From: Nitrospirota bacterium
Lineage (GTDB): Bacteria; Nitrospirota; JACRHJ01
Reading direction: 5' to 3'
Assembly (NCBI GenBank): GCA_963845245.1
Contig: CAWJRJ010000021.1
Location: forward strand, 64,001-128,000
DNA length: 64,000 nucleotides
The stretch's first letter is position 1. The number at the start of each line of letters is the position of its first letter. This document shows, in pieces, positions 813 through 23,068 of the stretch. Position numbers and translations under genes: made by a program. The notes under the pieces were generated by a model. It was not told the origin of the DNA and searched no databases. It worked only from the letters and a program-made list of their open reading frames with translations.

Positions 813-827
813 ATCTAATATGCAGCG

Positions 828-854
828 TTTGGGCCCCCCTGACGGGGGCCCAAA
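828..854 (+). terminator. GC-rich intergenic hairpin (stabiliser or weak terminator)
   Basis: TTTGGGCCCCC-ctgac-GGGGGCCCAAA just after the stop; no U-tract follows on the + strand. Confidence 0.5.
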
Positions 855-857
855 ACG

Positions 858-911
858 GCTGTGTTACTCACAGGGTGCGCAAGACCTTGCGCATCCTTTA
901 AGAAACACAGA
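858..911 (+). repeat. Conserved 54-nt intergenic stem-loop, copy A
   Basis: GCTGTGTTACTCACAGGGTGCGCAA-GACC-TTGCGCATCCTTTAAGAAACACAGA; aligns without gaps to 1343-1396 and 3527-3580. Confidence 0.85.
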
Positions 912-926
912 GGTAAGGAGAACGAA

Positions 927-1328
927 ATGAGCACCATGAAGAAAACAGTCTTAGCGATATTTACCTTGTTATTGGTTGCCGTGTTTGCTGGTTGTGCGTC
1001 CGAGCAGCAGCAGGCCGAGAAGGTAGTTTTTAATACGCTGGGGACGGTTTTGACGCTAAGAGACCGGCCGCTTTACACCAAGATTGTAAAAATCTCCTAC
1101 GAACATACCGGCAAGAATAAGCCTGGGGAGAAAAAGGCGTACTATATAAAGGGCTATGTAACTGTACGAAGGGTCGCGATGAAAGATTTCAAGTTCAGAG
1201 ACCAGACAGTACCTAAAGGGTCTACCCAGGACTACCGGTATTATTATGAAGCCAAGGTCGTCCAGGGCGTTAAGAACGCCCTGGTCCTGGTGCCGAGCGG
1301 GCTGACGATAAAACAGCAGGCGGGCTGA
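927..1328 (+). CDS. Basic lipoprotein of unknown function within the cytochrome cluster
   Basis: AAGGAG RBS before ATG 927; signal MSTMKKTVLAIFTLLLVAVFAG-C (lipobox); K/Y/V-rich body, no heme motif. Confidence 0.75.
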   Translation: MSTMKKTVLAIFTLLLVAVFAGCASEQQQAEKVVFNTLGTVLTLRDRPLYTKIVKISYEHTGKNKPGEKKAYYIKGYVTVRRVAMKDFKFRDQTVPKGSTQDYRYYYEAKVVQGVKNALVLVPSGLTIKQQAG

Positions 1329-1342
1329 CCCGTCTGGTATTG

Positions 1343-1396
1343 TTTGTATTTCTTGCAGGGCGCACAAGCCATTGCGTGCCTTGTCAGGGATACAGA
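1343..1396 (+). repeat. Conserved 54-nt intergenic stem-loop, copy B
   Basis: TTTGTATTTCTTGCAGGGCGCACAA-GCCA-TTGCGTGCCTTGTCAGGGATACAGA. Confidence 0.85.
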
Positions 1397-1444
1397 AAAC
1401 AAAATATTAAAGAAATTATAGAAATATTCAAAACGGAGGCTTAA

Positions 1445-3478
1445 ATGTCAAAAATGAGAATAGCAATAATCGCGCTCCTGGTCTTCGGACTGACCCTGGG
1501 CCTGTCCGGCATGGCCCTTGCGGTGACTATATCCTGCGGTCAGTGCCACGGCGCCTACGTCAACGACAACCACGGCGGAAAGACATTGATTCCGGGCGTG
1601 TCTGCGACTGAGGACACCAAGACACCTCAGGCCGGCGACATATGTGATAGCACAGGCCGCGGCCTGCACGGCATCCATATGAACTACTCCTCGGTAAGCT
1701 ACGGCAAGACCGGCGCTACGAGGGGCAACTGCAACTACTGCCACAACAAGCATGTACACGAGAACGGCTTCGTCGAGATGTCTGGATACAGCCCGGCCTC
1801 CGCAATTGGACCAGGTAGGCAACTTTACCATAACCAACGGCGGCACCGGCTATGTCGGCGGCGATCCGGGCGGCGATTATGTTACCGTAGTCGGCGGCAA
1901 CGGCGACGCACAGGCGTTGGTTACTACGGTTAGCGCCGGTGGCGTTATAACCGGTCTTTCCATGGGCGCGCATGGCCACAGCAAGGGCAGTGGCTATACT
2001 ACTGGTTCTGCCAACCTCTCGGGCGGGTCCGGCACGGGCGCTGTCATAAGCATAACATCGATCACCAACAACGGTTACCGTCAGTCGGTTACTTCAGCCG
2101 GCCTGGTAGTCACCGGCCCCGGTATGACCGCAGACGGCCTTGACATCACGCAGATGACCGGTAATGCAACCTGCGCCACCGCCTGCCACAAGGGCACCAG
2201 CGCAACCAACACCGCGCCGTGGGGCAACTTCACGACGCCGAGCATCCACCTGACCTGCAACAGCTGCCACGGTGACGCCTCCAACTACGGGCCCACCGCA
2301 TCGAACACCGGCCTCGGCAACGGCTTCTCCGGCACCGGCGGCCACAAGGTGCACCTGTACTCCGTAGGCGGAAGCCACGGCAACCAGCTGCTCGGCGGCA
2401 CCAAGATCGTGCTTGGCAGCTTCTCCACCGTCATCGACATGAACGGCAACAGCGACAAGGTCTGCGCGGCCTGCCACCCGGACAATACGAACGACCTTTG
2501 GAGCCAGGGCAGGGCGGACGACGGCAGCAAGAAGGCTTACCCGCACGCGACAGACGGTACCAACGTCCAGGCTAAGAATGCGAACTTTACTGCTCCTGCC
2601 AACATAGTGTTCACGAACGCTTCGGGCCTTGCCGACACCACTGGCAAACTGTCCTGCACCAACAACTGCCACTTCAACAAGTCGTCAGTGCAGAGCGCCA
2701 ACCCGACATGGACAGCGAGCAGCGGATGCGAGCTCTGCCACAACCATACGGCGACCGAGGCTGCGAACAACAGCGCCTTGGTCATGGGCGGCAGGGCGCT
2801 CTCATACGCGCACAGCCTGCACTTCAACCAGATATCGGCGATGCATGTCGGTTCGGCACGCCGCGCGGGCTTCCGTCCTGCAGCGACTGCCACACTGGCG
2901 CGCATACGATCAACGCGCTTGGCGGACCGCAGCTCATTCAGCTGCCTGTAAAGAATGGCGCCGCGGGCCTCGACTCGACGAAGGTCACCTACTCCGCTGC
3001 CGGCACCGTATCGGTCAGCGGTACCTGCACAACGACCAAGTGTCACATAACTCCCTCGCCTTCCTGGGACTCCATAGCGACTGGCGTCGTAGTCGGTACG
3101 ACCGGTTGCGCGACCTGCCACGAATATCCTGGCGCTCCGGGCAAGGACTGGGCTACGACCGGAAACGGCCACCTTGTCAGGTATGACGCTCCGGTCGTCA
3201 ACACCCACATGAAGGCGACTGGCTTCAACTACCAGACCGACAACTATGCCTCAGTTACTGCCGACACCGGCAAATGCGGCATCTGCCACAGGAACGTAAA
3301 GCACATGAACGGCACCGGCTTCGCTCACCTGAGCACGGTGACCGACACCACATACAGCGAGTGCGGCACGACTCCGTTCACGTTCTCAACAGGCGGCACC
3401 GGTACCGGCACAGACGCAGTAACCTGCAGCAACGTGAAATGCCACAGCGGCAATACTACCCCGAACTGGGGACCATAG
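1445..3478 (+). CDS. Secreted multiheme c-type cytochrome, ~12 heme motifs (apparent frameshifts near 1800 and 2860)
   Basis: GGAGG RBS; Sec signal ending MALA; CGQCH, CNYCH, CATACH, CNSCH, CAACH, CTNNCH, CELCH, CSDCH, CTTTKCH, CATCH, CGICH, CSNVKCH across ORFs 1445-1933, 1752-2951, 2708-3478. Confidence 0.88.
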
Positions 3479-3492
3479 TCTAAACCAGACAG

Positions 3493-3526
3493 CTTTGGGC
3501 CCCGCCCCGGAAGGCGGGGCCCAAAG
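3493..3526 (+). terminator. GC-rich intergenic hairpin, related to 828-854
   Basis: CTTTGGGCCCCGCC-ccggaa-GGCGGGGCCCAAAG, perfect 14-bp stem. Confidence 0.55.
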
Positions 3527-3580
3527 TCTGTATTTCTTGCAGGGTGCGCAAGACATTGCGCGCCATCCTAGGAATACAGA
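3527..3580 (+). repeat. Conserved 54-nt intergenic stem-loop, copy C
   Basis: TCTGTATTTCTTGCAGGGTGCGCAA-GACA-TTGCGCGCCATCCTAGGAATACAGA. Confidence 0.85.
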
Positions 3581-3639
3581 AGAGGAAATTAACCATTAAA
3601 AGTTTTCATCAATTTTGGTTTTCTATTAAGGAGGATAAA

Positions 3640-5266
3640 ATGGGATACACCAGTGAGTCGAAAAACAGAAGGTGGGGGTTGCCGGTAGGCCTTCTTGCCC
3701 TCATCCTGATGATGGTCCTTATAGGGACTGCGACGGCGCCTACCCCCGCAATGGCCGCGGCCATTACCTGCGGTGGGTGTCACAGCACGCCTCCCAAGGA
3801 CTCGGACAGCGGCGGCTGCAAGCAGACGACCAAGAGCCACCCGGACCACTCCACCGGTGCGGACCTGACCACTTGCGACCGCTGTCACCCGACGACCACT
3901 AGCTCTGTGCCGACGGCCAAGCACAACAACAACATCGTCAACATCACTTCGGTGGTTTCACCTGGATTGAGTTACAACAGCCTTAACGGAACGTGTACAA
4001 ACGCCTGCCACAAGAACGAACCAAACCCGACCTGGGGCGGGAGCGGCGCGGACTGCAACATCTGCCATTTCAGGAGCGGCGCAGTCGGCTCATACACTAT
4101 GTCCGGACTTCATGCTGCGCCCGGCAGGACATATATGCACTTCAGCTCTGCCATAAAAGTTGTGGACAATACCAAGACTGTAACCTGCAATAACTGCCAT
4201 CCTGCGGTGCCGTTCGCGAACAACACGACCAGCCCGCGTTCGCACATCAGGCTGCCGAACACCGCTGCAAACTTCAAGGCCCGCGCCGACATGTCGCAGG
4301 CCCATACATATGTAAGCGTTACCGGCATAGGTTATACAAAAGGTGCGACTGCGGCGGCGGGCACCTGCGCGCTTTCATGCCACAACAACTCAGGCGACAC
4401 GTTCGGCAACTACACGATCTACTTCAAGACCGGCCAGACCAGGCGTTTCGGGCCGTACTCCACGGCCAGGTGGGGTGCGTCCGACCTGAAGTGTAATGAA
4501 TGTCACAGCACGCCGAGTCAGTCGGCTACGTTCGGCGGTTCAAGCTCAGTCAACGCAAACAAGAGGCATAAGGCCCACATGTTCAGCTACAAGCTGAACC
4601 CATGGAACTTCGCCGGCCAGGACCGCAACATCTATTGCGACGACTGCCACAGGACACCGAACATAAACGCGACAAGGGGCTTTAGGGGTCACTCGACAAT
4701 CAGGCCAGGGCGGCAGCGGAATCATATCACTCCCTGTCAGATCCCAGAACGCAAAGGTCTACCTGACCTGGCGCAGCAACATCGGCCATGATGGACTTCC
4801 AACAGCATTCGATCCGTCGACCGTAACATGCTCCAACGTTTACTGCCATACCATCATGACCACGGCCCAGTGGACAGAGCAGGCCTGCAACTCATGCCAC
4901 GGCACAAAGGACGGAATCAACGTAGGTTCCGGCGCACCCGGCTACAAGGACTTTACCTCAATATCCGCGGCACAGTACCGCACGTTCGAGGACTATTCCG
5001 GCGGCGGCGGCGCGCATTACTCGCATGTCACCAAGCGTGGCTACGCCTGCCGTACATGCCATTACGATGGCGGCGGCGACGGCAACCCTGCGAACCATCA
5101 CAATAACAGCCTGACGGTATCCAGAGATAACGTAAACGTCGGTGTCGAGCCGCAGTACTGGTTCAACAACATGACCTCCAAGTACGACAAGGTTACCAGG
5201 AGCTGCAGCGACGTTGCTTGTCACTTCGGCGCGTCCCAGAACTGGGACTGCACACCGCTGCATTAG
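3640..5266 (+). CDS. Secreted multiheme c-type cytochrome, ~12 heme motifs (frameshift near 4700)
   Basis: AAGGAGG RBS before ATG 3640; hydrophobic signal; CGGCH, CDRCH, CTNACH, CNICH, CNNCH, CALSCH, CNECH, CDDCH, then CSNVYCH, CNSCH, CRTCH, CSDVACH in the frame of ORF 4856-5266. Confidence 0.88.
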
Positions 5267-5310: not shown

Positions 5311-5458
5311 GTATAAAAGGTTAAATGAAGAAAAATTCACGAGGATATACGCATGGTCACAAATACATCTGGAATGCTTGTGTTTATGGGCGTAATCTTG
5401 TGAAATCTTGAATATAAAACTTAAGAATAATTTAAAAGTTTCCAACGAGGAGGAAGAA

Positions 5459-8400
5459 ATGACGAAGAGGATGAATAAATATTCCCGCAAGGCCCTTGCA
5501 ACCACAGGCATAATGCTGGTGATCGGGGTTCTCATATGGGCACTGATGGCGTTCGCGTATAATGCCACGGTAGCCACATATTCGGACGCCACGCATTCCA
5601 CTGGCAAGACGAGCTTCGGCCGCGGGGTAGATACGGTCTACACCAACATGACCGGCGGCATAGGTTCCAACACATACTATGCCGAATACTGGGGCCCGTC
5701 CACGAATGGCGGCACCGACATGGTGTACGAACCCGGAACGAGGAGCGCCCAGCTGACATCGCGGACGACCGGCGGCCTCAGTACTTCATACGTTACACAA
5801 GCTACGGACAATAGCGGCACCTGGCAGGCGAGGATATTGCACAACCCGCAGTATACCGCTCCGCAGGCGATAGTTATGGATGTCCCGGCCAAAGGGCAGG
5901 TTCTTACAGCCGGTACGGCAGTGACCCTCCAGTTCCATCTCGTTGACAGGAACGGCAACACGATGACCGGCACCGACTACCGCTCCAAGATGTACACATA
6001 CATGTCATACAACGGCTCAACAAGCTCCCCCGGCTGGCGCGCATACGCCGCCAACAACAGCAGGGCTACCTGGACGTTCAACTCAGGGACCGGCATGTAC
6101 ACCAAATCCTTTACGCCTGCCACGGCGAGCACCGGCCTCGCCCAGCTGCGCGTTTATATGTACAACTGGTGGGGCACGACCAACGGCGCGATTGAGACCG
6201 GTGACGCCTATTCCATAAGCGGCTCCACCTCGAACGACCTCTATACACAGGAGTTCTGGTATGCGACCGGCGGCACCACGACCCAGACCAACGCATTTAA
6301 TATAGTCAGCGTTGACAGCATGAACCCGAAGTTCGTGGCAAACCCGGGCGTGCCCACGATTAACTACACCTATTACTTCGACATATTCGACGGCAACGGC
6401 AACGCTGTAACAAGCGGCATCACATCATGGACGAACGTATGCCGTGGCGCAGCCGCATACGTTACCGCCGGCACACAGCCGACGGCTACGGTTTATGCCG
6501 CACCCGCATATGACGCAACCTCCGGGCACTGGAAGGTAACCTGGACGCTGCCCGCTCCCGGCAAATACGGCATTGACCTCAGGGCTACCCGCGGCAACCA
6601 GGTGAGGATGGAGGATGTCGTCCAGTACGCGGCATCAAGCGCGTTCAGCATGCTAGGCGACGTCACCCCGCCTGCAAACGTAGCTTTCGGCACGGTTACC
6701 CCGTCAGACAACAGGGTAACGCTTAACTGGACAAACCCGACCACAGACCAGGGCGGCGGCGCATTGACCGGGTTCAACGGCATCATCATACTTCGGAACC
6801 AGAACAGCCCGGTACCAACGGGCCCTTCAACAGGGCAGGAATACAGCGTGGACGGCTCAAATTCTCCATTGCCTCCTTATGGTCCGCGCCCGAACTCCAT
6901 TGGAACGAGCAGCGTCGTATATATAGGTAACGGTACGCAATACGCCGACGGCGACCCTTGCGGCGTACCTCTTACAAACGACACAATAACATATTATTAT
7001 AAGGCATATTCTTTTGACCAGTACTACAACTATTCTACCGGCATAGAGGTGTCGAGCACACCACATGACGGAGTCGCAATCGGGCCTGTGACAATTACCG
7101 GCGTTACTGCCGGCGACCAGCAGAACACCATCAACTGGATCAACCCGAGCAGGTGCGACTTCAAGGGAGTCGTGGTAAGGTACAGCACGGTTTCGTTCCC
7201 GACCGTGTGCAGCATTTCCCCATCTGCATACACTGAAACCAGCAACGGCAACCTTGTAACATATCCTGTAGGCACCGGTGTCAAGCCCGGCGGAACGCCT
7301 GGAGGAGCCGACAGCATCCCGCACACAAACCTTACAAACGGCTTTACGTATTACTATACAGTATGGGCTTACGACGACGAAGTAACGCCGTTATACAGCG
7401 CCGCGGCGAGCCCGGCGACCTATGCATCCCCGCATGACGTTACGGCGCCAGCACAGATCACAAGCCTGAGTGTTGTGGGTGGCTCTACGAACGCTTTCGG
7501 GTGCACGCTCTCCTGGACGGCCACAGGCGACGACGGGATGGTCGGGACTGCGACAAAATATGATATAAGATATTCGAAGAGCCCGATTTACATCTCAGGG
7601 GATCCGGTAGCTACCGCCACCAACTGGAACAATGCATGGGAGGCCGTAGGCACGCCCTTCCCACAGCCAATGGTCTCTGGGACGGTACAGACATATGACG
7701 TCGCCGGCCTTTCGCCGCTGACGCAGTACTATTTTGCCATCAGGGTTGCGGACGAAGTTCCCAACTGGTCTGGTGTATCCATAACTAATGCCTCGACGAC
7801 GACCCTGTGCAACCCGAAGATTTCGGCGTGCAACCAGTGCCACCTGATGCCGCCTGACGACGAACTGCCTGGCGCGCACCCGCGCGGCACCGGCAATATC
7901 GGCAACCATGACCTCCCCATACATGCGGGACAGGGCGGCGCAGACCAGTGCGACGTCTGCCACGCAGATGGCAACGTATGGCGCAACAACACGACGCTCT
8001 ACCAGGTCACGCACCAGAACGGTGTGATAGACATAAACGGCCCCGGCATGATCGGCAACGAGTGGGAGCGCACCCAGGTCCCCCCGCAAGGCGGCACGTT
8101 CTACCCATCGACCACCGTTGTATACAAGTTCAAGAACTACTCCTCGGGCGTAGGCTACAAACAGACGACGGGCTACTGCCAGAACACGTACTGCCACGGC
8201 TCCGGCCTTTCTTCCCCGATGTGGGGCCAGGGGACAATAGTCTGCGGCGAATACTGCCACGAGACCCCGCCCGCGACAGGACGCCACGTCAAGCATTACC
8301 ACCCCGGCCAGAGTTACGTCAACTTCGGTCCGGCCTCGGTCAAAGTAAGCGGCTATACCAATGGAGAAGGCGTAATCGACTCTTCGGACGACGGAACCAT

Positions 8401-11400
8401 AGGCTGGAGCCCGGCGGCTACGGCCAACTCGATGCCGCTGCCTGTTGGTAGCAACAGGGATTTGCGGTACGCCACTTACATATCCTCCTCGAACGGCTCA
8501 ACCAAAACCTTCAACGTGGGCAACGGGATATGGTATGTCACCGTCTGCGTAGGCGATTCGTTTGTTGCAAAAACGAAGCAGACCGTTATGGCATCCGGTG
8601 ACGGCGGGGCCTCCTGGGTCAAGCTTATAGACAACTTTGACACCATGCCACAGAAGCTCTACAAAAAGGCGGTCGACATACCGGTGTTGGTAACGGGCAG
8701 CAGCAATCTGCGGATAAAGATAGGCAATGGCAGCAATCCGACACAGCTTTGTTACCTTATAATAAACAGTACGCCAGAAGCCCCGAAGTCGAATAACACC
8801 CTGTTAAAGAACACGGCTACGGAGTATGGTTTCTCGTGCGGCAAGTGCCACACCGACGATACGACCCAGGCGAGGCATACAAGCCACGTCGACGGGCCGG
8901 TACAGAGAGGCATAAGGGACGCCGAGAACGCATTTGACGGCAACTCAAACCCCAAGAACCCCCTCGGGCTGTACACTTCAGATGTAGCGTTATTCGGCAA
9001 CATATCGACATATATCGACGGCCAGGGCTACCCCTACACCAACGGCCGCGGCTGCAAAAACCTGTACTGCCACGGTTCCACGCTGCATGCTGGCGGCAGC
9101 AACCATACGCCGACATGGAAGGACGGATACATAGACGTGACCGGGGCCTCGATCTGCGGGTCGTGCCACGATGCGGGCTATGCGGACACCACCCCGTTGT
9201 CAAACATTACCACCGGGTCGCATACAAAACACACGAATAACACCTACGCATACAGGTTCGACTGCTACAAGTGCCATAACAGGACGGTTCTGCAGAAAGA
9301 CCCTGCAAACGGCAATAAAATAAAGATCGCCAACAAGATCTATCACGTAAACGGCCAAGCGGACGTTTACTTTGACCCGACCGACAACACGATGCTGTTT
9401 GGCAAGTACTCGACCTCTCAAAAGACGTGCTACAACGTCTACTGCCACTCGAACGGTCTCCTGGATAAGGCGGACAAGCCTATAAGCTGGGCAACGAAAT
9501 ATGCGACTCCGCAGTGGGCCAGCGGCTCAAAGACCTGCAACTACTGCCATGGCACCAGCAGGCCTGACGGCATGCCGGACTATGCGAACTTCGTGAACAG
9601 CACTTCTGGAACTCCCAACAGTCATCCCAAGCATGTGGACGAGAACAAGCTCGGCTGCTCCAAGTGCCACTACAACACCACCAGGAACAACGGCGCCAGC
9701 ATCTATACGACGATGCAGCCCTCGCTCCATGTGAACGGCATAGCCGACGTGACGTTCGATTCGGAGAACAACAACGGGACGTTCAACGGCTCATTCGACC
9801 ATGCCAACCAGCAGTGTTCAGGCACTTACTGCCATGGCCGTAGCTCACCGCCACAATGGGGCGGCGTGGTTGACTGCGGTAGCTGTCACGGAGTCAGCCC
9901 AACGAACCCGAACCCAGGCATCGGCGCGCACCTCATACATAACAACGGCGCCTTCAGCCTTGTCACCAGTGTCGTCACCAACGCATCGAGCAGCACGACT
10001 TACAATTTCACGTGCAACTTCTGCCACTTCAGCAGGACACACGGCGGCGGCGAGTACATAACGGGCGTGCAGACGGCTGAAACGAATTTCAACACCGTCA
10101 CCCCGACAAACGGCTACAACAACAATGGCGCAACATATACGCGCGGTACGGCGACATTGACCGATACAAGTAACTGGCACTACTCCGCCGGAACCTGCGC
10201 AAACACCAAGTGTCACAGCAGCAACAGCACCGGTGGCGCACCGAACAACGCTTTTGTCACCTGGACCAGCAAGTTCGTAGGTACATCAAGAGAGTGCTAC
10301 CAGTGCCACAACGGCGACGCGAGCGCGCCCGCCGGCAGAAGGATGAAGAGCGGTGCGCATGCGATGCATGTATTTACCTCCGTATACAGGAGGTCATGTG
10401 AGGAGTGCCACGCATTGACGGCTTCTTTAAACACCGTCGCCGACAAGTCTAAGCATGTAAACGGCACGGTTGATGTGAGCATCCTCCCGGCATACGGCGG
10501 CACTTTCGACAGCTCCAAGAACTGCAGTAACGTCTATTGCCACTCAAACGCCAACCCGTCGGCATGGGGCACGGGCACGGTATACTACAAGTCGATGAAC
10601 TGGAACACCGGTCCGGCCACCACCTGCACCAGTTGCCACAGCAACAATCATGTTGTCGGCGGTGACGGAGTCAGGTCTGAAGATCAGACGCTTTCGTTCA
10701 ACCACAGGAAGCACCTGAACCCGGCCACCGACTCGCTGCTTGGCGGCTACGGCTCCAGGATCGGCTGCACGAACTGCCATAACCTGACGGCGAAGACCAA
10801 TACATCCCTATATACAAGCATTGTGCCGTCTAACCATAACAATATGAACAAGGACATCTACTTCTCGACCAGCTTCTTCACCATGTCCGGCGTAAACACC
10901 GTTTACGGTGGCGGCGTTAACGGTACTGCATACTGGGGTCAGTGGAACACCCCTAACTCCGGCAGCTGTACTGTCATATGCCACTCAGACGCGCGCGGCG
11001 GAGACCCGCTGGTGTTCCCGAACTGGTCAACGACTCAGGGCTCGTATGGCTGTACGTCGTGCCACGCGGCCGACGCGACTACGTTCGCGCTGCCGAACTA
11101 CACCGGCAACGACAGCCACGAGAAGCACGTGAGCAACGGGGTTACCTGCAACACCTGCCACCGTCTGACGGCAGGCAACAACGCTGGGACGCCGTTCATA
11201 AACGCATCAGGCTTTACTTCCCACCATGTCAACGGCAGCGCGGGCAACGACGTGAAACTTTCTGTCATAGGCAATTATTCCACGGTGTCGAGGTCGTGCT
11301 CAAGCCTGAGTTGCCATGGGCACAGGGTCTGGGGTCAGCATTATGCTTCGAGCTGCAACAGCTGCCACGCCGCGCCGCCCGCGTACGCCCAGCACACGTT

Positions 11401-14400
11401 CCACAGCGGCCAGACGGGTGTAACAGCGAACCTCAATACCGACACCTCGAACGCCACTACCTACAAGTTCGGCTGCGGTAAATGCCATACCCTGGCCGCT
11501 ACTTCTCATAACAGCGGCAACGTCTCGTTGTACCAGACCGCGGAGGTAAAGTTCGACGCGACGGTCAACCCGGTGAACTCGTTGGGCAAATACACCACGC
11601 TCGGCGCGTTATGGGCTACCGATGCCCAGGGCAAGACGTACACTGCCGGTACCTGCAAGAACCTCTACTGCCACAGCAACGGCCAGACAGGCACTTATGC
11701 GAAGTACAGTTCCGTCAGGTGGAATACGACGGCTGTCTACTGCACAAGCTGCCACGGCGACGCGACGGCAGGGACTCTTTCAACGCCGCACAACAAGCAC
11801 GTGAACACACTTGCGGCAGGCAGCTATAACTTCGGTTGCGTGCAGTGCCACAACAGGACTGTTGCCAGCAACTCCGCGATCAGCAACAAGGCGAACCACG
11901 TCAACGGTGTCAAGGACGTGTTCTTCAAGAAGTTCTCATCGGTGGCGTTCGGCAACAAGACCGGTTCGTACAATACGGTAAACTGCTCGAACACCTACTG
12001 CCACAGCGACGGGAACGGCACGTCAAAGACGCCGACGTGGGCGAGCGGGACTATAAACTGCGCGAGCTGCCACAACTACACGGTTGCGTCCGGCTCGGAA
12101 ATCACGACGGGCAAACACACGCAGCATATCCACAACGGCAACCTTGGCACCTACAGGTGTGTAGACTGCCACAGCGACACGGTTATGGCGAACAACTCCA
12201 CCATAATCTACACGAACGGCACGCACGTGAACGGCGTCAAGAACCTCAACTTCCTTGACAAGTCGTTGAACAACTTCACGGGCGCGTATGTTACGGCAAC
12301 CAAGACCTGCCGCAACAACTACTGCCATAGCTCCGGCCAGGCCAAGAGCGGCACCGGCTCGTTCGCCAACCTCTCCACGCCGGTATTCAGGACCACCGCC
12401 GTATGGACCGGTGGTGCGCTTGACTGCAAGGGTTGTCACGGCGCGGACACCGGCTTCACCAGCCAGTTCGGCGAACCGAACTACACCAACAGGTCCACGG
12501 CAAGCAGGGCATGGTACAACGGCCACGCGAAGCACGTGAAGAGCGTGACCGATTGCAATAAGTGTCATAACCTGACGACCGCCGACGGTGTTAGCATACT
12601 GGCCGGAGGCATGCACATCAACGGCAGCAGGGACGTCAACTTCAACCTGACACTGTTACCGGGCGCTTCATACAACAGCACGAGGAAGATGTGCACCGTG
12701 CCTACCTGCCACACAGGCACGGTAAGGTGGGGCGGCACGGTCCCGAACAGCTGCCAGAGCTGCCATGCGGACATGGGCGCTGGTAAATACACGAACCACA
12801 GCACGACCGGCAAGCACGCAAAGCATACGAATTCGACAACATACAAGTTCGCATGCGAGAACTGCCACAAGACGATGGACACCTCCGGCAACACGACTCA
12901 TGCTGGTGGTAACGTATCAACATATCAGACGGCGCAGGTGGCCTTCAGGACCAACTCCACCACCTGGGATTACGTGACCTACGACGGGGCCGGTACGCAG
13001 TTCAAGTATATAAGGATCGACTCGATGTACGGCACGACCGTGACACCGATATACAAGGCGGTCTCTACGACCAGCCCGCTCTCCGACAGCGTGGTGGCCA
13101 GCCGCAAGTTTACGCAGGGCAGGTGCTCGAACGTGTGGTGCCACTCTGACGGCCACAAGTTCGGCAACACGAGTACCGTATTCGTGAAGTATGCGAACTG
13201 GTCTACTGCGGAGACGACAAACTGCCGCAGCTGCCACGCTGGCGATAAGTCTGCTGCGCCGACGATGTCATCGGGCAAGCATACGAACCACATTAATAAC
13301 GGCAACCTCGGCAATTTCACCTGCTCGCGGTGCCACACGGACACGGTAAGGGGCAACTCGACCGTATACAACTATGACTACCACGTGAACGGAGTGAAGA
13401 ACATAAACTTCACCTCTATAGTGCAGGCAAACTATACCGGAGCCTACGTATCGGCTACCAGCACCTGCCGCAACGTGTACTGCCATAGCTCGGGTACGAA
13501 GTACACCAGCATGACAAACGCCACTTCCTCGCCTACGTTCAGGACCCCGACGTGGAGCGACACGGCCTGGGCCAGTAAGTGCAAGGGCTGCCACGGCGCG
13601 GACAGCGGCTTCACCAGCAAGTTCGGCGAGCCTAACTATGCGAACAGGTCAACGGCGAGCAGGGCCTGGTTTAACGGTCATTACGTGTCCAGCCACGTCA
13701 GTGTAGCAGCCGACTGCTTCAAGTGCCACGCTGCCACGGTTTTGAGTAACGGCACTTCCATCAACACATCGGGCAAGCACCTTAACGGGTTCAGGAACGT
13801 CTCGTTCACGGCAGGCGGCACTTATGACGCCACGAACAAACGTTGCAGCAACACCGCGACGGGTTGCCACGGCACGACCACGATGCGTTGGGGCGGTACT
13901 GGCACCTGCCAGACATGCCATGCGACCACCGGGACCGAGGTAAACGACTACGTATATGGCAACGGCACACAGGCCACCATAAGCATGACCCAGTACACCT
14001 CGATAGGCCACGGCAGGAAGATAGGCAGGTATGCCTACAGCAACCAGTCCGGCGCATCGAGCGCGAACCACAGCGCGGCGAGGAAGGTATCTGACTGCTC
14101 GACCTGCCATGACTCGACAGTGCTGCACAATATGACTTCCGGTGCGACGCCGAACTTCTTCAGGCTCAAGGGCGGCGGCGACCCGAACGCGCTATGCTCA
14201 TCCTGCCACTCGACGACTACTGAGGCGCACCACAACCAGGCCAACACCGGCGGCAACGCCAACTGGGCCATACTGACGCCGAAATGCGTGGACTGCCATG
14301 ACCCGCACGGAGACACAGGCGCAAACGGCAGGAGCAATGCGTACATGATCGGAGGTATGATAAACTACACCTCCAACAGCAAGTACGACGGCAGGCCTGC

Positions 14401-17243
14401 CGGTACCAACGGCAGCCTCATGAGGGCAGTGAACTTCCCTGCCAACGTGAGCCAGCCCACGGTGCTTAACTACACCAGCTTCGTGAGGCCCACTTACGAC
14501 GGCCTGTGCCAGATATGCCATATAAGGGGCGTCGATTCGGCTGCTCCCGGCGGCACTACATCACCGATACACTTCAACAGGGCGCTTTATACGACCCATA
14601 ACAACCCGACAGTCTGCACAAGCTGCCATAGCCACTCCACCGGCTTCCAGGGCGCAGGCGGCGACTGCAAGGGCTGCCACGGCACCGGCGGGTCCGCTAC
14701 ATTAGCTGGTAGACGCGACATGCAGCTAGAGTTCAACAACTCGTCCTCGCATCATATTGTAGGCAACTGGACGAACATCACGAAGTATGAATGTGCGGCA
14801 TGCCACGCAGAGGGCAACTATGCCGACGGCTCCCTCTCCGCACTACATACGGGTACACATGCAAAGCCTGTTTACCTGAAGAAGTGGAATGCGGCTATCA
14901 CTACGGGCAGCAACGGTACCTTTACCGTGATAAGCACAAACAGCCTCGCTACCAACAGCAGCGTGCTTACGCCGTTCTGCCTCGGCTGCCACAGCGACCA
15001 GAACAACGCCGCCACGCCGTTTGTGGCCTCAGGCGACACCAGGAACCCGACCAGCTACTCATGGGACAACAACTCTGTCGGGAGCAAGTACAGCAACGTA
15101 TCGACTACGCCGTGGGGCAAGTTCAACTCCTCGACGTACAACGTCGTCCCGGCCGACCAGGTCACCAAGGCATTCAGCCCGCACGGCCAGACCGGCAAGA
15201 ACGACATGCCAAAGAGCCTTAACTCGTTTGCCATCTACTCGGGCACCAAGGCCGTCCAGTGCTACGACTGCCATAACGCCCATGCCTCTAACGTCACCGG
15301 TGGCACTTCCTACACCAGCGGCAACAACGAGGGTGGCATAATCAAGACGACCTCCACCTATGTCCCGAGGGCGGGCGGCTCTACGGCTACGAAGAACGCG
15401 TACAGCTCAAGCGCCGACCTCTGCTTTGACTGCCACCTGGGCGAGAACGGCTCCGGCGCACCGAAGACCTACAGGGACTACGGTATACCGAGCGGCAAGG
15501 CGATTGTCGGCTACTACGACCGCGTGGGCATGAACTTCAGCAACTACAGCTCATCGAGGTGGTCAACAAGCGACGTGTGGCGCGGCAGCTTTGCCTACAA
15601 AGACGGCACGTTCAAGGGCGGCCACTTCGGCAACTCGCAGGGCTACCTACAGGAGGGCCTGGGCACCATGGGTACAAAGGTCAACGGCAACTGCACCGCC
15701 TGCCACGACCCGCACGGCGTTTCGCCTGCCATCAAGAGGGGCTTCACGAAGCTGACGCGTACAGTCTACGCGGCCGCCAGCACCGAAACCGACCCGGTCC
15801 TTTCGGGCAGCTATACCGGAACGGCGAACGCCTCGAACGTAAACGTCATACAGATTGTGGCCGGCGGCGCATTAGGCACGGCTACCTACAGGGCATCCAC
15901 CAACGCCGGCAAGACCTGGGGAAGCACTACCAGCACCAGCACCGCCTGGGCGGCTAACGGTATTACCGCTACATTCCAGGCCGGTAACTACAGCGTTGAC
16001 GATACATGGACCTTCCTGTCAGGCGCAAACCCGAACTTCATGGCCCCGGCACTGAAGGGTACATGGATGCACTCCCCGTACAAGGAGGACCGTACGCCGA
16101 GGAACACGTATACTACGGACAAGGGCAACGGCGAGGCCACTGCAAGGCTTGCAGGCATCTTTAAGGCCGACGACTACACCACCTATGCGGACCAGACGGG
16201 CTGGACTACCGCCAAGAGGTACTGGGATGACACTCACCGGCGGCACCAGCGCCGCAGGCACCAACAGGAAGGTCGGCGGCCCGGCCCCGAGGGCGAACCC
16301 GGACTTCAAGACCGGCTCTTACGTGCCGGGCTACAACACCCCTGCGATACAGGGCGACGGCTTCGGCCGCGGCCCGGTACGCAGCTACGGTGCCGGCTTC
16401 ACGAACGTGACCAGCATGAGGGGCTGGAACGGCTACTTCATAGACGAGAACACATTCGGGCAGACTACTGCCAAGCAATACGGGTATGTCAATCCGTATA
16501 GCAATATGAGTACGGCCAACCCGGCTGCATGGAACCCCGGCAACTTCGCCGGCCTGTGCCTGAAATGCCATGCATGGCAGAAGAACACGGCGAGTTCCAT
16601 ATCGCTTTCGAACGTGACCTCGGCGAACCTTGCCACTGGCACGCAGAGGGTGACGACCAAGGTCCACGAGACGGTCGCGAACCTGGGCACCATAACGGTC
16701 AACCTCTTCCAGCGTAACGAGGGCACCGGCTCATACACATCAATAGCCTGCCGACTGGTGGGTATGCATATGAGCCAGTACAACGGCAACGACGGCTCCG
16801 CCAGCGAGACCGGCGGACCAACCGGTGCGGCCGCAGCTAAGCTACACTGCTGTCTATGGTATCCTGGATACGACGGGCCAATCCGGAACCAGCGACCAGC
16901 GCAGCCATTACTACCGCTGGGGCGTGAGCGGCAGCGCGCAGAAGACCGCTGGCACAGATACAGGCCAAGTACCACCAGTTCCCGTGCAGCAAGTGCCATA
17001 CGCCGCATGCCTCCAGGCTGCCGAGGCTGATGAAGACGAACTGCCTCGACAACGACAACGTCGGCACGGCGCACACCACGATGGGCTATGTCGGCAACAC
17101 CGCCACCATGAGCGGCACCGCTGCTACGAACCTCTGGGGCGCGCTTGCCAGGAACGTGGCCTGCCACAGCACCAAGATAGGCTACGCTCGGCAGCTGCGC
17201 TACGTACACCCCCGGCGGCTGGAACAACAAGACGCCCTGGTAA
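5459..17243 (+). CDS. Giant surface multiheme cytochrome c (~3,900 aa) with N-terminal Ig/FN3-like domains; C-terminus reconstructed across several indels after ~16230
   Basis: GAGGAGG RBS before ATG 5459; signal/TM segment; manual count 41 CxxCH, 13 CxxxxCH, 2 CxxxCH and 1 Cx6CH in ORF 5408-16501; continues in shifted frames (GLCLKCH, HQFPCSKCHTPHASRLPRLMKTNCLD) to GWNNKTPW-stop at 17241-17243. Confidence 0.92.
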
Positions 17244-17316: not shown

Positions 17317-17376
17317 ATGAAGATAAAGTACACAGCTCCGAAAGTGGTAGCCAGCTCAAGCGTCCATCCCTGCTAA
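17317..17376 (+). CDS. 19-aa small peptide MKIKYTAPKVVASSSVHPC (RiPP-precursor-like); below the ORF-track cutoff
   Basis: AAAGGAGG Shine-Dalgarno 7 nt before ATG 17317; TAA at 17374-17376; YxxP leader-like motif; terminator follows. Confidence 0.75.
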   Translation: MKIKYTAPKVVASSSVHPC

Positions 17377-17399: not shown

Positions 17400-17441
17400 C
17401 AAGGGCTGATGGTAAAATATAACCATCAGCCCTTGTCTTTT
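17400..17441 (+). terminator. Intrinsic terminator after the peptide gene
   Basis: CAAGGGCTGATGGT-aaaatata-ACCATCAGCCCTTG (14-bp perfect stem) followed by TCTTTT. Confidence 0.8.
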
Positions 17442-17474: not shown

Positions 17475-18426
17475 ATGAAAAAAATCCTTGTGACTATAAG
17501 TATTGTTCTTGCCTGCTTGTCCGTTATGCCAGCTTATGCCAGGGCAGACAAGATTTATGTTGCAATGACTGATGGCAGCAGCGTCGAGGTGGTGGACCCT
17601 GCCCTGCTTGACTCGTGGGGTGATATACAAACAGGCAAGAATCCCATGATGCTCGCAGCCTCAAAGGACGGCAGCTACGTATTTGTTTCGATTTATGGTG
17701 AAGGCAAGGTGCAGGTAATAGATACCAAGACTGATAAGGTTGTCAATGATATCAATCTGGGTCAGGGGCCACACGCGATGGATATCTCACCGGACGGCGG
17801 CTTGCTCGCGGCCGGAATACTGGACGAACCGAAAGTCTACATTATCGACGCCAAGGAGTTCAAGGTGATAAAAGCGATAACGACCCTTGGGGGCGTCTCC
17901 GAGGTGAAGTTTTCGCCGGACGGAAAAAAACTCTATGTCGTGCAACGGGAAAAACCCATGCAGGTAATTGATATGGCTAATATGGAGCCTGTTGCGGAAA
18001 TGAATATTCCAACTGAGACATATGACATCGCATTTTCAAAATCAGGCGATAAATTATATGTGAACAGCACCGATGACGGCAACATGTCGATTATCGACAT
18101 TAAGACATCGGCCGTTTTGAAGAAAATACCGGCCGGCAAGACGGGGCTTGCAGTGTCTCCCGACGGTAATGAGATATGGTTTGGGGGGCCGGGGGACAAG
18201 ATAACGGTTTACTCCCTTACCAAGAACGCGGTGATAGCGACTCTACCGCAGGATTGCGACAGGAACTTCACGTTGCTGTTCAGCCCGGACGGGAAGACCG
18301 TTCTGGCTACTCCCGCCGGGAAAGATAACCTCAAATTATATGTTTACGATGCAATCAAAAAAACAAGGAAAGGGGTAGGTCGCACTCAAAGGCAACCCCC
18401 GCGGATTGGCATACATTACAAAATAA
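17475..18426 (+). CDS. Secreted YVTN/YncE-type beta-propeller protein (probable frameshift near 18378)
   Basis: AAGGAG RBS; signal ending ARA; repeated (F/I/V)SPDG..YV blades; shifted frame gives VALKGNPRGLAYITK-stop at 18426, which removes the overlap with the convergent gene. Confidence 0.85.
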
Positions 18427-18440
18427 TTGGATTATACGGG

Positions 18441-19490
18441 CTAACGGTTTATCGCTCCTTTATATCCCGCTTTTAAAGCCGCCGCCGCATCAAGTTCCTT
18501 GGATGCGGCTTCTTTTTGACCAACCTTCAAATACGCATAGGCAAGGTCGTAGTGGGTAGCCGCGTCCTTCGGGTATTCCTTCAAAAGTGTCAGATAGAGC
18601 GGTATGGCCTCCTTGAACGAACGCTGTTCCATCTTCCATGCGTCCGCGCGGTCAAGCCAGAGCTTCGGAGGCGCGCCGTTCAGCATCTTGGGGTTGGCGA
18701 AGAGTTCCGCGAAATAATCTGCAAGAAACCTGAACTTGTAAGGCACCAGCCCGTTTTTGTTGGATGCGCTGATCGATACCATGTCAGAGCTTAGACCCGA
18801 CTCCTGTAGTGTCTTGAAGAAACCTGACACGAGCGAGAGAATTCGGGTCTTTTTCTCATCCAGGTAGATATCAGAGAAAAAGGATAAATCTATATCCAGG
18901 AGTACCGGCTTGTCGATTTTCGGCAGGTCTTGGAGAGACACGATGAAAACAGGGATGCCGCTAATCGTCCCAGAGGCGACCTTGCCGTTCAGGACCAGTT
19001 TGTCGAACTCTTGTGACTGGGAGGGGTATGTCTTTTTTAGGTGCTCCTTAAAACCGTCCAGGCTTTCCTTGGTGAGACTTGTAAGGCTCGGTATGACCCA
19101 ATAAACATCCTTTACAAGGCCGAGCCTGGTCGCCGCAAATACTGTATTTTCTGCGGAGTAGGCCGGTTTCCCGTCTGACACATTACCCATGGACAGAAGC
19201 TTGTCCGAATCTCCCTTGCCAGCCGTATCTTTTAGTGACTTCAGAATGTTTTCGTCCAATGGCGCGAGTCCATCCATGTATGATATGTGGACAAGAGTGC
19301 GGTCTTTGGCGCCGTTTTGTGTCCAGTAAGGTATGTTGAAGTTCTCCTGTTCGAGAAGCTGCACCTTGATGGGGTCAACCGCCACATTTAATACCGGCAG
19401 TTGAGGCGCTTTTGGTTTTTCCTTCTCCTTTGCGCACGAGGATGAAAACAGGAGGATGAAAGCGGCAAACATCAGAAGGGACTTTTTCAT
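18441..19490 (-). CDS. Lipoprotein with degenerate UPF0489-like domain and C-terminal TPR
   Basis: Lipobox FSSSC; RTLVHISYMD, VYWVIP, LLDIDLSFF segments; TPR-like YPKDAATHYDLAYAYLKVGQKEAA. Confidence 0.6.
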   Translation of the reverse strand: MKKSLLMFAAFILLFSSSCAKEKEKPKAPQLPVLNVAVDPIKVQLLEQENFNIPYWTQNGAKDRTLVHISYMDGLAPLDENILKSLKDTAGKGDSDKLLSMGNVSDGKPAYSAENTVFAATRLGLVKDVYWVIPSLTSLTKESLDGFKEHLKKTYPSQSQEFDKLVLNGKVASGTISGIPVFIVSLQDLPKIDKPVLLDIDLSFFSDIYLDEKKTRILSLVSGFFKTLQESGLSSDMVSISASNKNGLVPYKFRFLADYFAELFANPKMLNGAPPKLWLDRADAWKMEQRSFKEAIPLYLTLLKEYPKDAATHYDLAYAYLKVGQKEAASKELDAAAALKAGYKGAINR

Positions 19491-19506: not shown

Positions 19507-20724
19507 TTATGGCAGTATCTTCTCTACTTTGCATTCAAGCTCGCCGGCCTTCAGCCTGAGCTGTAACATATCACCGGGCGCGACCTGACCGGCGTCGGTA
19601 ACGACCTCAAGCCCGGGCAGCCTTCGTGCTATGGCGTAGCCGCGCGTGAGGGGGGCAAGCGGCTCAAGGGCTGATAGCCCGGCCACGCAGCGCTCAAACC
19701 GCTGCTTTGCGCCTTGCAGCTTGTATGTCATGGCCATCCTGAGCCTGCCGGACTTGTCGTCCAGTCGCAGGAGGTGCTCGTGTATGGCCCTGCCGCGGGT
19801 CGACAAACACGCGCATCTCGGCATCGAGCCTGTTCCTCGTGCGCCTGAGCAGCTGAGATGTGTAATAGCTGAGCCTGCTCCGGAGGTCTTGCACCTTCTC
19901 CCGGACCTCCTCTTCGCTCTTGGCGACAATCTCGGCAGCAGCGGAAGGGGTGGGGGCGCGCATGTCCGCAACGAAGTCTGCGATGGTGAAGTCAACCTCG
20001 TGTCCTACGGCGGAGATAATCGGTATGGCAGAGGCATGTATCGCACGCGCGACCGTCTCGGAATTGAAGGCCGCCAGGTCTTCCATGGAGCCGCCGCCGC
20101 GCCCGGCAGATTATGACGTCGAGCCCGCCCGCCTCGTTGAGGTCTGCAATGGCCCTGGCAATCTCATGAGGGGCTGCATCGCCCTGCACGGATGCGGGCG
20201 CGATTATTATATGCACGCCCGGCGCGCGTCTCTTTAATACCTTTAAAATATCCCTTATTGCCGCCCCGGTGGGGGATGTGACCACGCCGACCGTCTTGGG
20301 GTACTCGGGCAGCGCCCTCTTCCTCTCGGGGGCGAACAGGCCCTCCTTCTCAAGCTTTTCCCTGAGCTGGAGGAATGCGAGCTGGAGCGCGCCGAGGCCC
20401 TTTGGGCTCCATGTACTCCGCGATTATCTGGTACTCGCCGCGCGGCTCGTAGAGCGATATCCTGCCGCGCAGGATCACCTCCAGACCGTCCTCCGGCTTG
20501 AACTTGAGGAAGCGGCTGCCGGAACGGAAGAATACCGCCTTGATCTGCGCGTCTTTGTCTTTTAGTGAGAAGTAGAGGTGGCCGGAGGAGGGGATGCGAA
20601 GGCCGGTGATCTCGCCCTGCACCCATACGTCGGCAAAGCCCGCTTCGAGCGTTTCCTTTATCCTGCGGGTAAGCTCGGAGACGGTTATCGGGGTGTTTAA
20701 ATTGAAGCCGAGTTGCATAGGCAT
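19507..20724 (-). CDS. xseA: Exodeoxyribonuclease VII large subunit (several apparent frameshifts)
   Basis: [68 protein letters not shown]. Confidence 0.93.
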
Positions 20725-21513: not shown

Positions 21514-23068
21514 TTACTTCGCGTACTCGACGTAACGGGCTTCCCTTATCACGGTGACCCTTATCTGGCCGGGATACGCCATCTCTTCTTCGATCTTCTT
21601 CGCTATCTCCCTGGAGATATGGGCGGCTGATACGTCGTCCACATCCTCGGGCTTTACTATCACGCGTATCTCGCGGCCTGCCTGAATTGCGAAACACTTC
21701 TCGACGCCGGGGAACGAGGTGGCTACCTCTTCGAGCTTTTCGAGGCGTTTTACGTATGTCTCAAGCGTCTCGCGCCTTGCGCCCGGCCTTGCAGCCGATA
21801 GGGCGTCCGCAGCCGCCACGAGCACGGACTCGACACAGGTGAATTCCACGTCGCCGTGATGTGCCATAATGGCGTTTAATACCTTGGCATTCTCTCCGTA
21901 CTTCTTGGCAAGGTCAAACCCGATGCTGGCGTGCGTGCCTTCGATCTCGTGGTCTACAGCCTTGCCCAGGTCGTGCAGAAGACCCGCGCGCTTGGCGAGC
22001 TTTACGTCCACGCCGAGTTCAGCCGCCATGACGCCCGCGAGGAATGCGACCTCCCTTGAGTGCATGAGCACGTTCTGGCCGTAGCTGGTGCGGTACTTGA
22101 GCCTGCCCAGGAGCTTTATAACGTCCGGGTGTATGCCGTGGAGCGTAAGGTCGAAGGCAGCCTTCTCGCCTTCCTCACGCATTGTTTCGTCCAGTTCCTT
22201 ACGTACCTTGTCAACGACTTCTTCTATACGGCCCGGGATGTATGCGTCCGTCCGCCATGAGCCGCTCGATGGATTGGCGTGCGATCTCTCTGCGTACGGG
22301 GTCGAAGCCTGATACTATTACGGCCTGCGGCGTGTCGTCGATTATGAGGTCTATGCCGGTCGCGGCCTCGAGCGCACGGATGTTCCTGCCCTCGCGGCCT
22401 ATTATGCGGCCCTTCATCTCGTCGTTGGGGAGGTTGACCAGGGATACGGTGGTCTCGGCCACGTAGTCGCTGGCGTAACGCTGGATGGCAAGCGCCATTA
22501 TGTCCTTGGACTTCTTGTCCGCAGTGGCCTTGGATTCGTCCTCTATGCGCTTTATCATCTTGGCGCCTTCGTGGGTGGCCTCCTCCTCCATGCGCAGGAG
22601 CAGCTCCCTCTTGGCGTCCTCGGAGCTCATCCCGGCGATACGCTCAAGCTGCCTTACCTGCTCAAGTATGCCGTCCTCGTACTTCTTTTCCTTTTCAAGC
22701 AGGACATTCTCGCGGTTTGCGAGGTCCTTTTCCTTTTTCAGGATGTCCGAATCCCTCTTGTCGAACTGTTCGGACTTCTTGTCGAGATGTTCCTCTTTCT
22801 GGACGAGGCGTTTCTCTGAGGCGTTAAGCTCGGTACGCCTGTCTTTTATCTCCTTCTCGAAGTCCGAACGCTGCTGGTAGAGCTTGTCCTTCGCTTCGAG
22901 AAGCAGTTCCTTCTTCTTCGTCTCGGCGTCGCGTTCCGCGTCCTTCAGCATCCTCTTGGCCTGCTCTTCGGCATCTTTTATCTTGGATTCCGCCATCCCC
23001 CGCTTTATCAGCATGCCGATCGCAAGGCCGACAACCCCAGCCACCGCTATCCAAATGTAATCAACATA
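21514..23068 (-). CDS. rny: Ribonuclease Y (frameshifts near 22200-22230; start approximate)
   Basis: N-terminal TM, coiled coil, KH motif [18 protein letters not shown] domain [33 protein letters not shown]. Confidence 0.95.

Follow-up and report, generated by a model that had tools for sequence, protein, structure and literature searches.

A giant multiheme cytochrome gene of a Nitrospirota bacterium, its triheme repeats, and the small peptide gene behind it

Giant single-chain multiheme cytochromes are candidates for mineral respiration or for electron exchange with partners in uncultured subsurface bacteria, and they are also of interest as protein wires of fixed length. To our knowledge, none of them has been biochemically characterized. 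In a stretch of 64,000 nucleotides from a Nitrospirota bacterium (assembly GCA_963845245.1, contig CAWJRJ010000021.1, positions 64,001 to 128,000; hereafter the window), an initial annotation had described a cytochrome of ~3,900 residues with ~59 potential heme sites, which the open reading frame (ORF) track appeared to cut short, and had interpreted it as a heme wire extending from the cell surface. This raises the question of whether the window holds one intact gene or the remains of one, and of what a protein with this architecture might do for its host.

One gene, fifty-nine heme motifs, and four frame breaks

The ORF track shows an open frame at 5408-16501 (+), or 3,697 residues counted from a TTG. 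The likely start of the cytochrome is an ATG at 5459 (MTKRMNKY...), which has GAGGAGGAGG ahead of it and lines up with the starts of homologues. Beyond ~16230 the main frame turns into arginine-rich nonsense, and sensible protein moves on through successive frames to a C terminus at 17243 that reads ...GGWNNKTPW before the stop. This end matches that of the homologue P0004 and, closely, that (...GGWNKVTPW) of an intact paralogue on contig C24 of the source genome (G000), a protein of 3,829 residues with the same motif order and 54% protein identity overall. Alignment to the paralogue, whose DNA is 79-93% identical over the last 2.3 kb in 300-base blocks, places single surplus bases at about 16233, 16837, 16956, and 17188, together with one in-frame 2+1 insertion, and the sequence beyond each break still matches homologues. 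We also sought compensated frameshifts in the first 10.8 kb of the gene by tblastn with the paralogue and found none, as a single high-scoring pair in one frame crosses 5420-16354. The protein is collinear with the homologues P0003 and P0004 and with the paralogue. These alignments support the size and the reconstructed GWNNKTPW terminus that had been proposed, and they indicate that the ORF track cuts the gene short artificially: the feature is one gene at 5459..17243 (+), of ~3,926 codons (and about as many residues) when four single-base frame breaks are read through.

The main frame carries 57 heme motifs (41 CxxCH, 2 Cx3CH, 13 Cx4CH, and 1 Cx6CH), compared with a mean of 0.79 and a maximum of 5 when the main-frame protein is shuffled (n = 1,000). 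Reading beyond the frame breaks, with an X at each, adds CLKCH and CSKCH for a total of 59 (43 CxxCH, 13 Cx4CH, 2 Cx3CH, and 1 Cx6CH), the same figures, class by class, as in the initial annotation. We conclude that the window most likely holds one real gene for a protein of ~3,900 residues with 59 heme sites, and that sequencing errors near its end account for the apparent truncation.

These motifs follow a regular grammar. From 7829 to ~13870 their order is strictly CxxCH, CxxCH, Cx4CH, with a Cx3CH or Cx6CH substituting at three positions of the triplet series, and from 13907 onward only CxxCH occurs. The regular rhythm and the change to a CxxCH-only C-terminal region had both been recognized from the start; the number of triplets had been put at about 16, of which we count 15 complete. 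When the protein is cut at each Cx4CH, the region at 7829..13870 (+) resolves into fifteen triheme units of the general form Cx4CH...CxxCH...HxxH...CxxCH...HVNG, a division that rests on the motif map, the unit alignment, and matches to TIGR01904 in 15 stretches. The units are of two types: ten are type A (Cx4CH ... W ... CxxCH ... HxxH ... CxxCH ... HVNG) and five are type B, marked by TTYxFxCxxCH, in the order B A A B A A A B A A A B A A B. Each is 108-148 residues long except for the first, which reaches 292 because it includes an insert.

The conservation of these elements bears on whether the unusual motifs are used. Each of the 13 Cx4CH motifs and each Cx3CH or Cx6CH stand-in has a CxxCH 19-38 residues later, a pattern that is invariant in 5 homologues, and all 57 main-frame motifs (57/57) are invariant across five full-length sequences at about 50-54% identity. 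This argues that every noncanonical motif is under selection and, by extension, that the Cx3CH, Cx4CH, and Cx6CH sites would be used for heme; Cx3CH and Cx4CH are listed as accepted heme-binding motifs in the excerpted text of PMC11492766. When 33 type-A units drawn from four proteins are aligned, only the three heme motifs, one Trp, and exactly three His beyond the motifs stay invariant. The H..H and HVNG elements that had been put forward as distal-ligand candidates are thus real conserved features. Across the same five full-length sequences, 61 His outside the motifs are invariant, 49 of them against 45 motifs in the triplet region and 12 against 12 motifs in the later part, and given this stoichiometry we expect bis-His coordination at every heme. 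In a relative from the same family (G007; locus L004, G007:C6:299847-303083), the same N- and C-terminal modules flank only ~5 triplets rather than 15, which suggests that chain length varies by whole units.

The frame breaks could have arisen in two ways. They may be artefacts of a noisy assembly, or they may be real, in which case the gene would be a decaying or truncated paralogue that ends at 16501 (3,680 residues) and lacks the conserved two-heme C-terminal domain, with the intact copy on C24 doing the work. Several observations speak for decay. No break lies in a homopolymer, and four breaks inside 1 kb after 10.8 kb with none is an uneven distribution, with similar patchiness elsewhere in the region; the upstream cytochrome genes of the same cluster are broken too; the genome has an intact paralogous cluster at another site; and the database copy of this protein is the truncated form of 3,680 residues. 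It also counts against the artefact explanation that the breaks are judged by comparison only. However, breaks of the same type occur in the essential single-copy genes for RNase Y and XseA and in the regulator pair: relative to an intact locus (L005) from a groundwater metagenome-assembled genome (MAG), we count 3 frame changes in XseA, 1 in RNase Y, 4 in the sensor kinase, 1 in the response regulator, and none in the other genes. Moreover, it is the window locus, not C24, that is syntenic with this relative's intact locus, and the out-of-frame parts remain 83-93% identical to the paralogue at the DNA level and conserved in protein.

A sequencing run bears on the first break as well. Run X1 (0.05 of sampled words) yielded short contigs of relatives only, in 115 pieces of which 67 were less than 90% alike, and the one informative piece, a contig from a relative, spans 16144-16450 without the base at 16232, so that it reads through the first break. 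Because the insertions and deletions also strike essential genes (RNase Y and XseA) and the sensor kinase, the breaks are most likely assembly errors; we regard an artefact, rather than biology, as very probable from these comparisons, and genuine decay as unlikely.

The assembly as a whole comprises 2.88 Mb in 37 contigs and is 90% complete with 5.2% contamination. Error patches lie at 16233-17243, 19507-20724, 21514-23044, and 1-5266 and, upstream of the window, at ~56,000-59,600 of contig C21, with long clean stretches between them. The assembly breaks XseA into 4 fragments, RNase Y into 2, the sensor kinase into 5, and the response regulator into 2, and it also divides several cytochrome genes. 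The 379-residue M29 peptidase homologue aligns over its first 221 residues only.

Domain layout and a proposed envelope electron conduit

By sequence similarity, the giant is a clear member of the CxxxxCH/CxxCH family of c-type cytochromes. TIGR01904 matches it in 15 stretches (323.2 bits against a cutoff of 27, E 1e-98) and PF09698 in 10 stretches (77.4 bits, cutoff 21.7); PF14522 and PF22113 also score above their cutoffs, and PF14537 matches too. The Geobacter-type assignment originally suggested therefore holds under a search with family models. From a single intact gene of this kind, we propose that a Sec-exported c-type cytochrome of ~3,926 residues would be made, laid out as a signal or anchor helix, a beta-sandwich "stalk" of ~750 residues, fifteen triheme units, a 12-heme MtrC/c7-like region, and a 2-heme C-terminal domain.

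A hydropathy scan places a basic stretch and the only hydrophobic segment (residues 12-34), followed by the sequence AFA-YN, at 5459..5590 (+), where they may form a Sec signal peptide or a signal anchor. The best 19-residue windows all begin at residues 12-16, the segment spans ~22 residues, and the giant has no second one; W44, A45, L46, and A48 are invariant in 4 sequences. The non-heme N-terminal region that follows (5591..7828, +; ~750 residues) probably consists of beta-sandwich domains of the Ig/FN3 type. Its match to the fn3 model PF00041 is weak (residues 669-764, E 2e-4, under the cutoff); homologue P0003 carries a precomputed PF00041 match, and a sequence comparison of the N-terminal piece with the PDB gave chance-level matches only (best E 0.46). 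The heme part begins at residue 791, counted from the ATG at 5459.

Within the first unit, which is of type B, a non-heme insert of ~180 residues (8291..8833, +) sits between hemes and is conserved in the window protein and in each of the three homologues aligned with it. It has no Pfam match at E<=1, and its ESM Atlas feature matches (0.92-0.93) include PF21254 and Malectin clusters. These language-model features suggest a possible galactose-binding or malectin-like binding module within the heme chain, which we treat as a lead only. The CxxCH-only region at 13907..16231 (+) holds 12 motifs in MtrC/MtrF-like and cytochrome-c7-like domains (PF22113, 97.8 bits; PF14522, 98.9 bits). It is followed at 16233..17243 (+) by a conserved C-terminal domain with 2 more CxxCH, seen in shifting frames by paralogue alignment and three-frame translation. 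This last domain also contains a conserved single-Cys xCH site at ~17155-17170 (+; ...NVACHST...), which reads NVACH in the window, P0004, and the paralogue and ECH or QCH in P0003 and P0005. The 59 do not include this site, which could bind heme through a single thioether or act as a ligand.

Structure prediction contributed little to this picture. A 12-heme B-A-A-A block (residues 1936-2400), predicted from a 10-row in-register alignment, came out unusable (mean predicted local distance difference test [pLDDT] 30.8, predicted template modelling score [pTM] 0.16), and a single type-A unit predicted from the 33 aligned units reached a mean pLDDT of 57.5 and a pTM of 0.42. An alignment of 32 sliding windows was discarded, as its staggered, overlapping windows had aligned on their shared parts. 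The A-unit model gave no Foldseek hit against the PDB at E<=0.001 (two chance-level rows at E 6-9) and no VIA-align hit at Z>=2 among 48,161 chains, and because the model is so poor these searches say nothing about the fold. At the sequence level, phmmer searches of the PDB with two 750-residue pieces (repeat and C-terminal) returned no matches and hence none to OmcS, OmcE, or OmcZ. The unit profile found partial, motif-driven matches, the best (E 9e-8 over 52/105 positions) to a photosynthetic reaction-centre cytochrome, and no chain named as a filament subunit was among the 60 matches listed.

Closely stacked bis-His hemes in multiheme cytochromes pass electrons by hopping. The hemes of the giant would be low-spin and bis-His ligated, and they may lie close enough for hopping along the chain. 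A Cache/GAF sensor kinase and a LuxR-type regulator precede the genes for three to four smaller multiheme cytochromes just upstream of the giant. We suggest that these cytochromes would feed the giant and that, together with them, it most likely serves as a conduit of fixed length, which would take respiratory electrons tens of nanometers across the cell envelope or past it, to an acceptor that is insoluble or extracellular. On balance, we favor this combined interpretation, in which the giant is an intact, Sec-exported CxxxxCH/CxxCH cytochrome that acts with its neighbor cytochromes as an electron conduit of the envelope and in which the breaks are assembly errors, although with reservations. 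A role as a surface wire in particular is plausible but unproven, and the endpoint could be at the surface, beyond it, or in the periplasm. Of the original interpretation, then, the family and the artificial truncation stand, whereas the heme wire extending from the cell surface stays a plausible hypothesis. The surface reading draws on the single N-terminal hydrophobic segment, the weak FN3 match, the malectin-like lead, the MtrC/OmcA-like neighbors, and a Glu-poor composition rich in Thr, Gly, Ser, and Asn (Thr 12.9%, Gly 10.6%, Ser 9.8%, Asn 8.5%, Glu 1.3%).

Several points weigh against the conduit we propose. The N-terminal helix could remain uncleaved and anchor the protein in the inner membrane, the scan of neighbor genes recognized neither an outer-membrane porin nor a secretion gene, and [ST]P[ST] motifs of the hematite-binding type are not enriched in the giant (8 observed versus 7.7 +/- 2.8 in shuffles). 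Because our own predictions are unusable, the idea of a rod comes from models published for related proteins, and we know of no family member with a tested function.

Some of these points lead to an alternative in which the giant works inside the envelope, anchored in the inner membrane, as a conduit that spans the periplasm or as an electron store ("capacitor") rather than as an extracellular wire. The length of the hydrophobic segment and the lack of a recognized porin or secretion gene fit this alternative, and the excerpted text of PMC11492766 envisages two roles for very high heme counts, one of them the storage of electrons, and reports periplasmic predictions for some high-heme groups. 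Conversely, an Ala-x-Ala site follows the helix (AFA before YN); the FN3-like and carbohydrate-binding-like modules, the surface-type composition, and the MtrC/OmcA-like neighbors point outward; and 59 hemes at ~1 nm per heme would exceed the width of the periplasm. We hold a wholly internal role to be possible but doubtful.

It is also conceivable that the giant is chiefly an enzyme or terminal reductase, in which the heme chain would supply a catalytic site acting on a soluble or colloidal substrate such as a sulfur, selenium, or metal species. Related loci tie the companion peptide system described below to a YedE-type selenium transporter, and the unit profile weakly matches NrfA-type reductases, although via heme motifs only. 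Against this, the invariant His suffice for all 57 main-frame hemes to be six-coordinate, which leaves no obvious open catalytic heme; the motif scan of the giant found no CxxCK or other catalytic-type motif; and no catalytic-domain family is among its family-model matches. We consider a reductase highly improbable, and we return to an electron conduit in the envelope as our working interpretation.

A small HPC peptide gene and the surrounding cluster

The giant gene is followed by a small, unannotated gene. At 17317..17376 (+), 74 bases past the stop codon of the giant and behind a GC-rich hairpin and an AGGAGG (8 nt upstream), 19 codons encode MKIKYTAPKVVASSSVHPC before the stop, a candidate precursor peptide for the GeoRSP radical S-adenosylmethionine (SAM) system. 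A terminator-like hairpin of 14 pairs with a T-rich tail (17400..17435, +), found by consensus scan only, would end a transcription unit of cytochrome and peptide. Further copies lie at G000:C24:129482-129541 and 129292-129360 (-) and at 26454-26513 of L005. The paralogous locus, the groundwater MAG, and the genomes G004 and G007 each encode an identical peptide behind a giant gene, while the copy in G003 is 95% identical and has no cytochrome upstream, so that the peptide is cytochrome-linked in 5/6 genome loci. Between the window and the groundwater locus, the peptide gene shows 7 synonymous and 0 nonsynonymous differences, whereas the giants are only 50% identical; by this comparison, the peptide is under purifying selection.

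The peptide family reaches well beyond these cytochromes. Metagenome contigs contain 109 stretches that fit a degenerate DNA pattern; in 80 of these loci, every match (82/82) belongs to the same family and ends in His-Pro-Cys (HPC), and 14 of the 80 loci hold an ORF with at least 4 CxxCH. In genome G030 the peptide lies 60 nt after a gene for the GeoRSP radical-SAM protein (TIGR04303), and in G154 and G265 it shares a cluster with such a gene. The G154 cluster (L038) holds PqqD (TIGR04302), radical-SAM/SPASM (TIGR04303), and SPASM (TIGR04304) genes, all above cutoff, and a YedE selenium transporter; within it, the peptide lies 11 kb upstream. Among 301 genomes, in which related genomes are not independent, a peptide match at E<=1 occurs in 13 of the 14 with TIGR04303 above cutoff and in 10 of 286 others, of which at least 4 lie in long frames and look false. 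Neither NCBIfam, in which no model matches the peptide even at E<=10, nor a literature search on GeoRSP and TIGR04302/TIGR04303/TIGR04304 offered anything on it, and only 3 called proteins in a large protein database resemble it, all unnamed.

Given that HPC peptides occur inside GeoRSP clusters of other Nitrospirota, the 19-residue peptide is probably the missing substrate of this uncharacterized radical-SAM system. In the source genome, the PqqD and radical-SAM genes are on contig C16, the latter frame-broken, and the only three peptide genes stand behind two giant cytochromes; a search of this genome for a SPASM-only gene found none, its matches being confined to SPASM domains within two radical-SAM frames. 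The GeoRSP pair (PqqD and radical SAM) lies at the end of a large region (C16:134000-162300) of repeated genes for NosD-like beta-helix proteins and for proteins of unknown family. A YedE-type selenium transporter and its binding protein are encoded at C14:102300-105000.

This arrangement raises the potential that the giant and the HPC peptide form a functional pair, in which a GeoRSP-matured peptide might act as a redox cofactor, a shuttle, a metal or selenium ligand, or a cap. The idea rests on tight genetic linkage and on selection on the peptide, and the chemistry falls outside this evidence; we offer it as a tentative suggestion. If it were true, extracellular electron transfer would have a peptide-derived partner, as dehydrogenases have in pyrroloquinoline quinone and mycofactocin.

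Upstream of the giant come the Cache/GAF histidine kinase and LuxR-type regulator, a 12-heme cytochrome of 701 residues, an MtrC-like pair, a 155-residue protein, and a cytochrome of ~555 residues; downstream come a YncE-like beta-propeller protein and a TPR protein. In the window, the 155-residue protein (861..1328, +) belongs to no known family and is conserved in the paralogous cluster at 75% identity. The second copy of the ~584-residue MtrC-like cytochrome lies in three frames at 1445..3478 (+), with the tail of the first copy at 1-576. This tandem duplication (1445-3478 and -1285 to 576 in window numbering, on C21) is found here; the paralogous cluster and the orthologous locus have one copy each. 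The cytochrome nearest the giant (3544..5266, +) is an orthologue of a 555-567-residue protein and is split into 3544-4791 and 4856-5266, and the propeller gene (17475..18476, +) adjoins the giant gene in the orthologous locus too.

Full synteny with the intact groundwater Nitrospirae locus L005 extends through the kinase, regulator, 12-heme cytochrome, MtrC-like cytochrome, 567-residue cytochrome, giant, propeller, TPR protein, XseA, YmdB, RNase Y, and MgsA. The paralogous cluster on C24 has the same gene order at 66-85% DNA identity, with the paralogue gene at G000:C24:129612-141140 (-). Six ORFs of the source genome have 41-50 CxxCH each; among them are the intact paralogue and, judged from size and motif count, two apparent further pairs on C15 and C18.

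Size, relatives, and known electron conduits

The giant is not exceptional for its size. A search of 5.8 billion proteins, with 2,064 candidates scored, gave 65 matches at E<=0.001, including the window's own truncated form of 3,680 residues, a protein of 3,713 residues that is 54% identical, and P0004 (3,798 residues, with 50% identity across 99% of the query and the annotation [quoted passage not shown]), together with many matches from Geobacteraceae and Anaeromyxobacter at 24-34% identity. At least 59 motifs occur in 23 of 66 long proteins compared, with a maximum of 112, and the excerpted text of PMC11492766 gives a record of 113 hemes and a Desulfuromonadia maximum of 87. Given these proteins and the published maxima, the size is ordinary for the family; 59 hemes is not a record, and it changes nothing in what is known of the family. 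The family model has a match in 15 of 31 genomes (the source genome and 30 relatives), and 9 of the 11 genomes from the same family are among these 15. A scan of genome contigs with a 419-residue middle piece recovered no relative, and a second scan with an alignment recovered one locus.

What the locus adds is a well-defined group of orthologues in Nitrospirota whose units follow a clear grammar (three hemes and three His per unit, in two unit types), evidence of selection on every noncanonical motif, and variation in unit number between relatives. It also adds a conserved operon context, of which a tiny peptide gene is part, and this gene may connect the cytochromes with an orphan radical-SAM system.

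Its nearest counterparts outside Nitrospirota are the CxxxxCH/CxxCH cytochromes of Geobacter, Geotalea, and Anaeromyxobacter, such as the Geotalea daltonii protein with "53 heme-binding sites" (P0042), which belong to the same repeat family and giant size class. These relatives share the mix of PF09698, PF14522, PF22113, and PF14537, and in the excerpted text of PMC11492766 AlphaFold models of GSU2884/OmcA, OmcH, and OmcG appear as long single-chain heme wires with iron-iron distances of <15 Angstrom. However, the giant comes from Nitrospirota, reaches only 24-34% identity, across 12-56% of the query, with members from Desulfuromonadia and Anaeromyxobacter, and has its own N-terminal stalk, malectin-like insert, ...GGWNNKTPW tail, and B-A-A-A unit order. 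Far closer are the groundwater orthologue (JACRHJ010000039, L005; 3,807 residues) and P0004, at 49-50% identity over 99% of the length. The groundwater orthologue has the same motif order (58 motifs versus 59), the same C-terminal tail, the same neighbors on both sides, and the 19-residue peptide gene behind it; it is intact, whereas four frame breaks interrupt the window copy, which is also preceded by an additional, tandem MtrC-like gene.

Among characterized systems, the MtrC/OmcA/MtrF proteins of Shewanella share PF22113 (MtrC/MtrF domain II/IV) with the C-terminal region of the giant and with two neighbor genes. Unlike the OmcA/MtrC family, the giant has no match to TIGR03507, and no MtrAB-type porin partner was recognized among the neighbor genes scanned. 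GSU1996, a dodecaheme "nanowire" of c7-type triheme domains, resembles the giant in its modular triheme domains within one polypeptide, and PF14522 (cytochrome c7) matches the giant's C-terminal region; in contrast, the giant's units begin with a Cx4CH motif and match TIGR01904, not c7. Finally, OmcS, OmcE, and OmcZ are like the giant in the job that we propose for it, long-range electron transport along stacked bis-His hemes (PMC11492766, excerpted text). These proteins form filaments of subunits with 4-8 hemes, whereas the giant is a single chain of fixed length.

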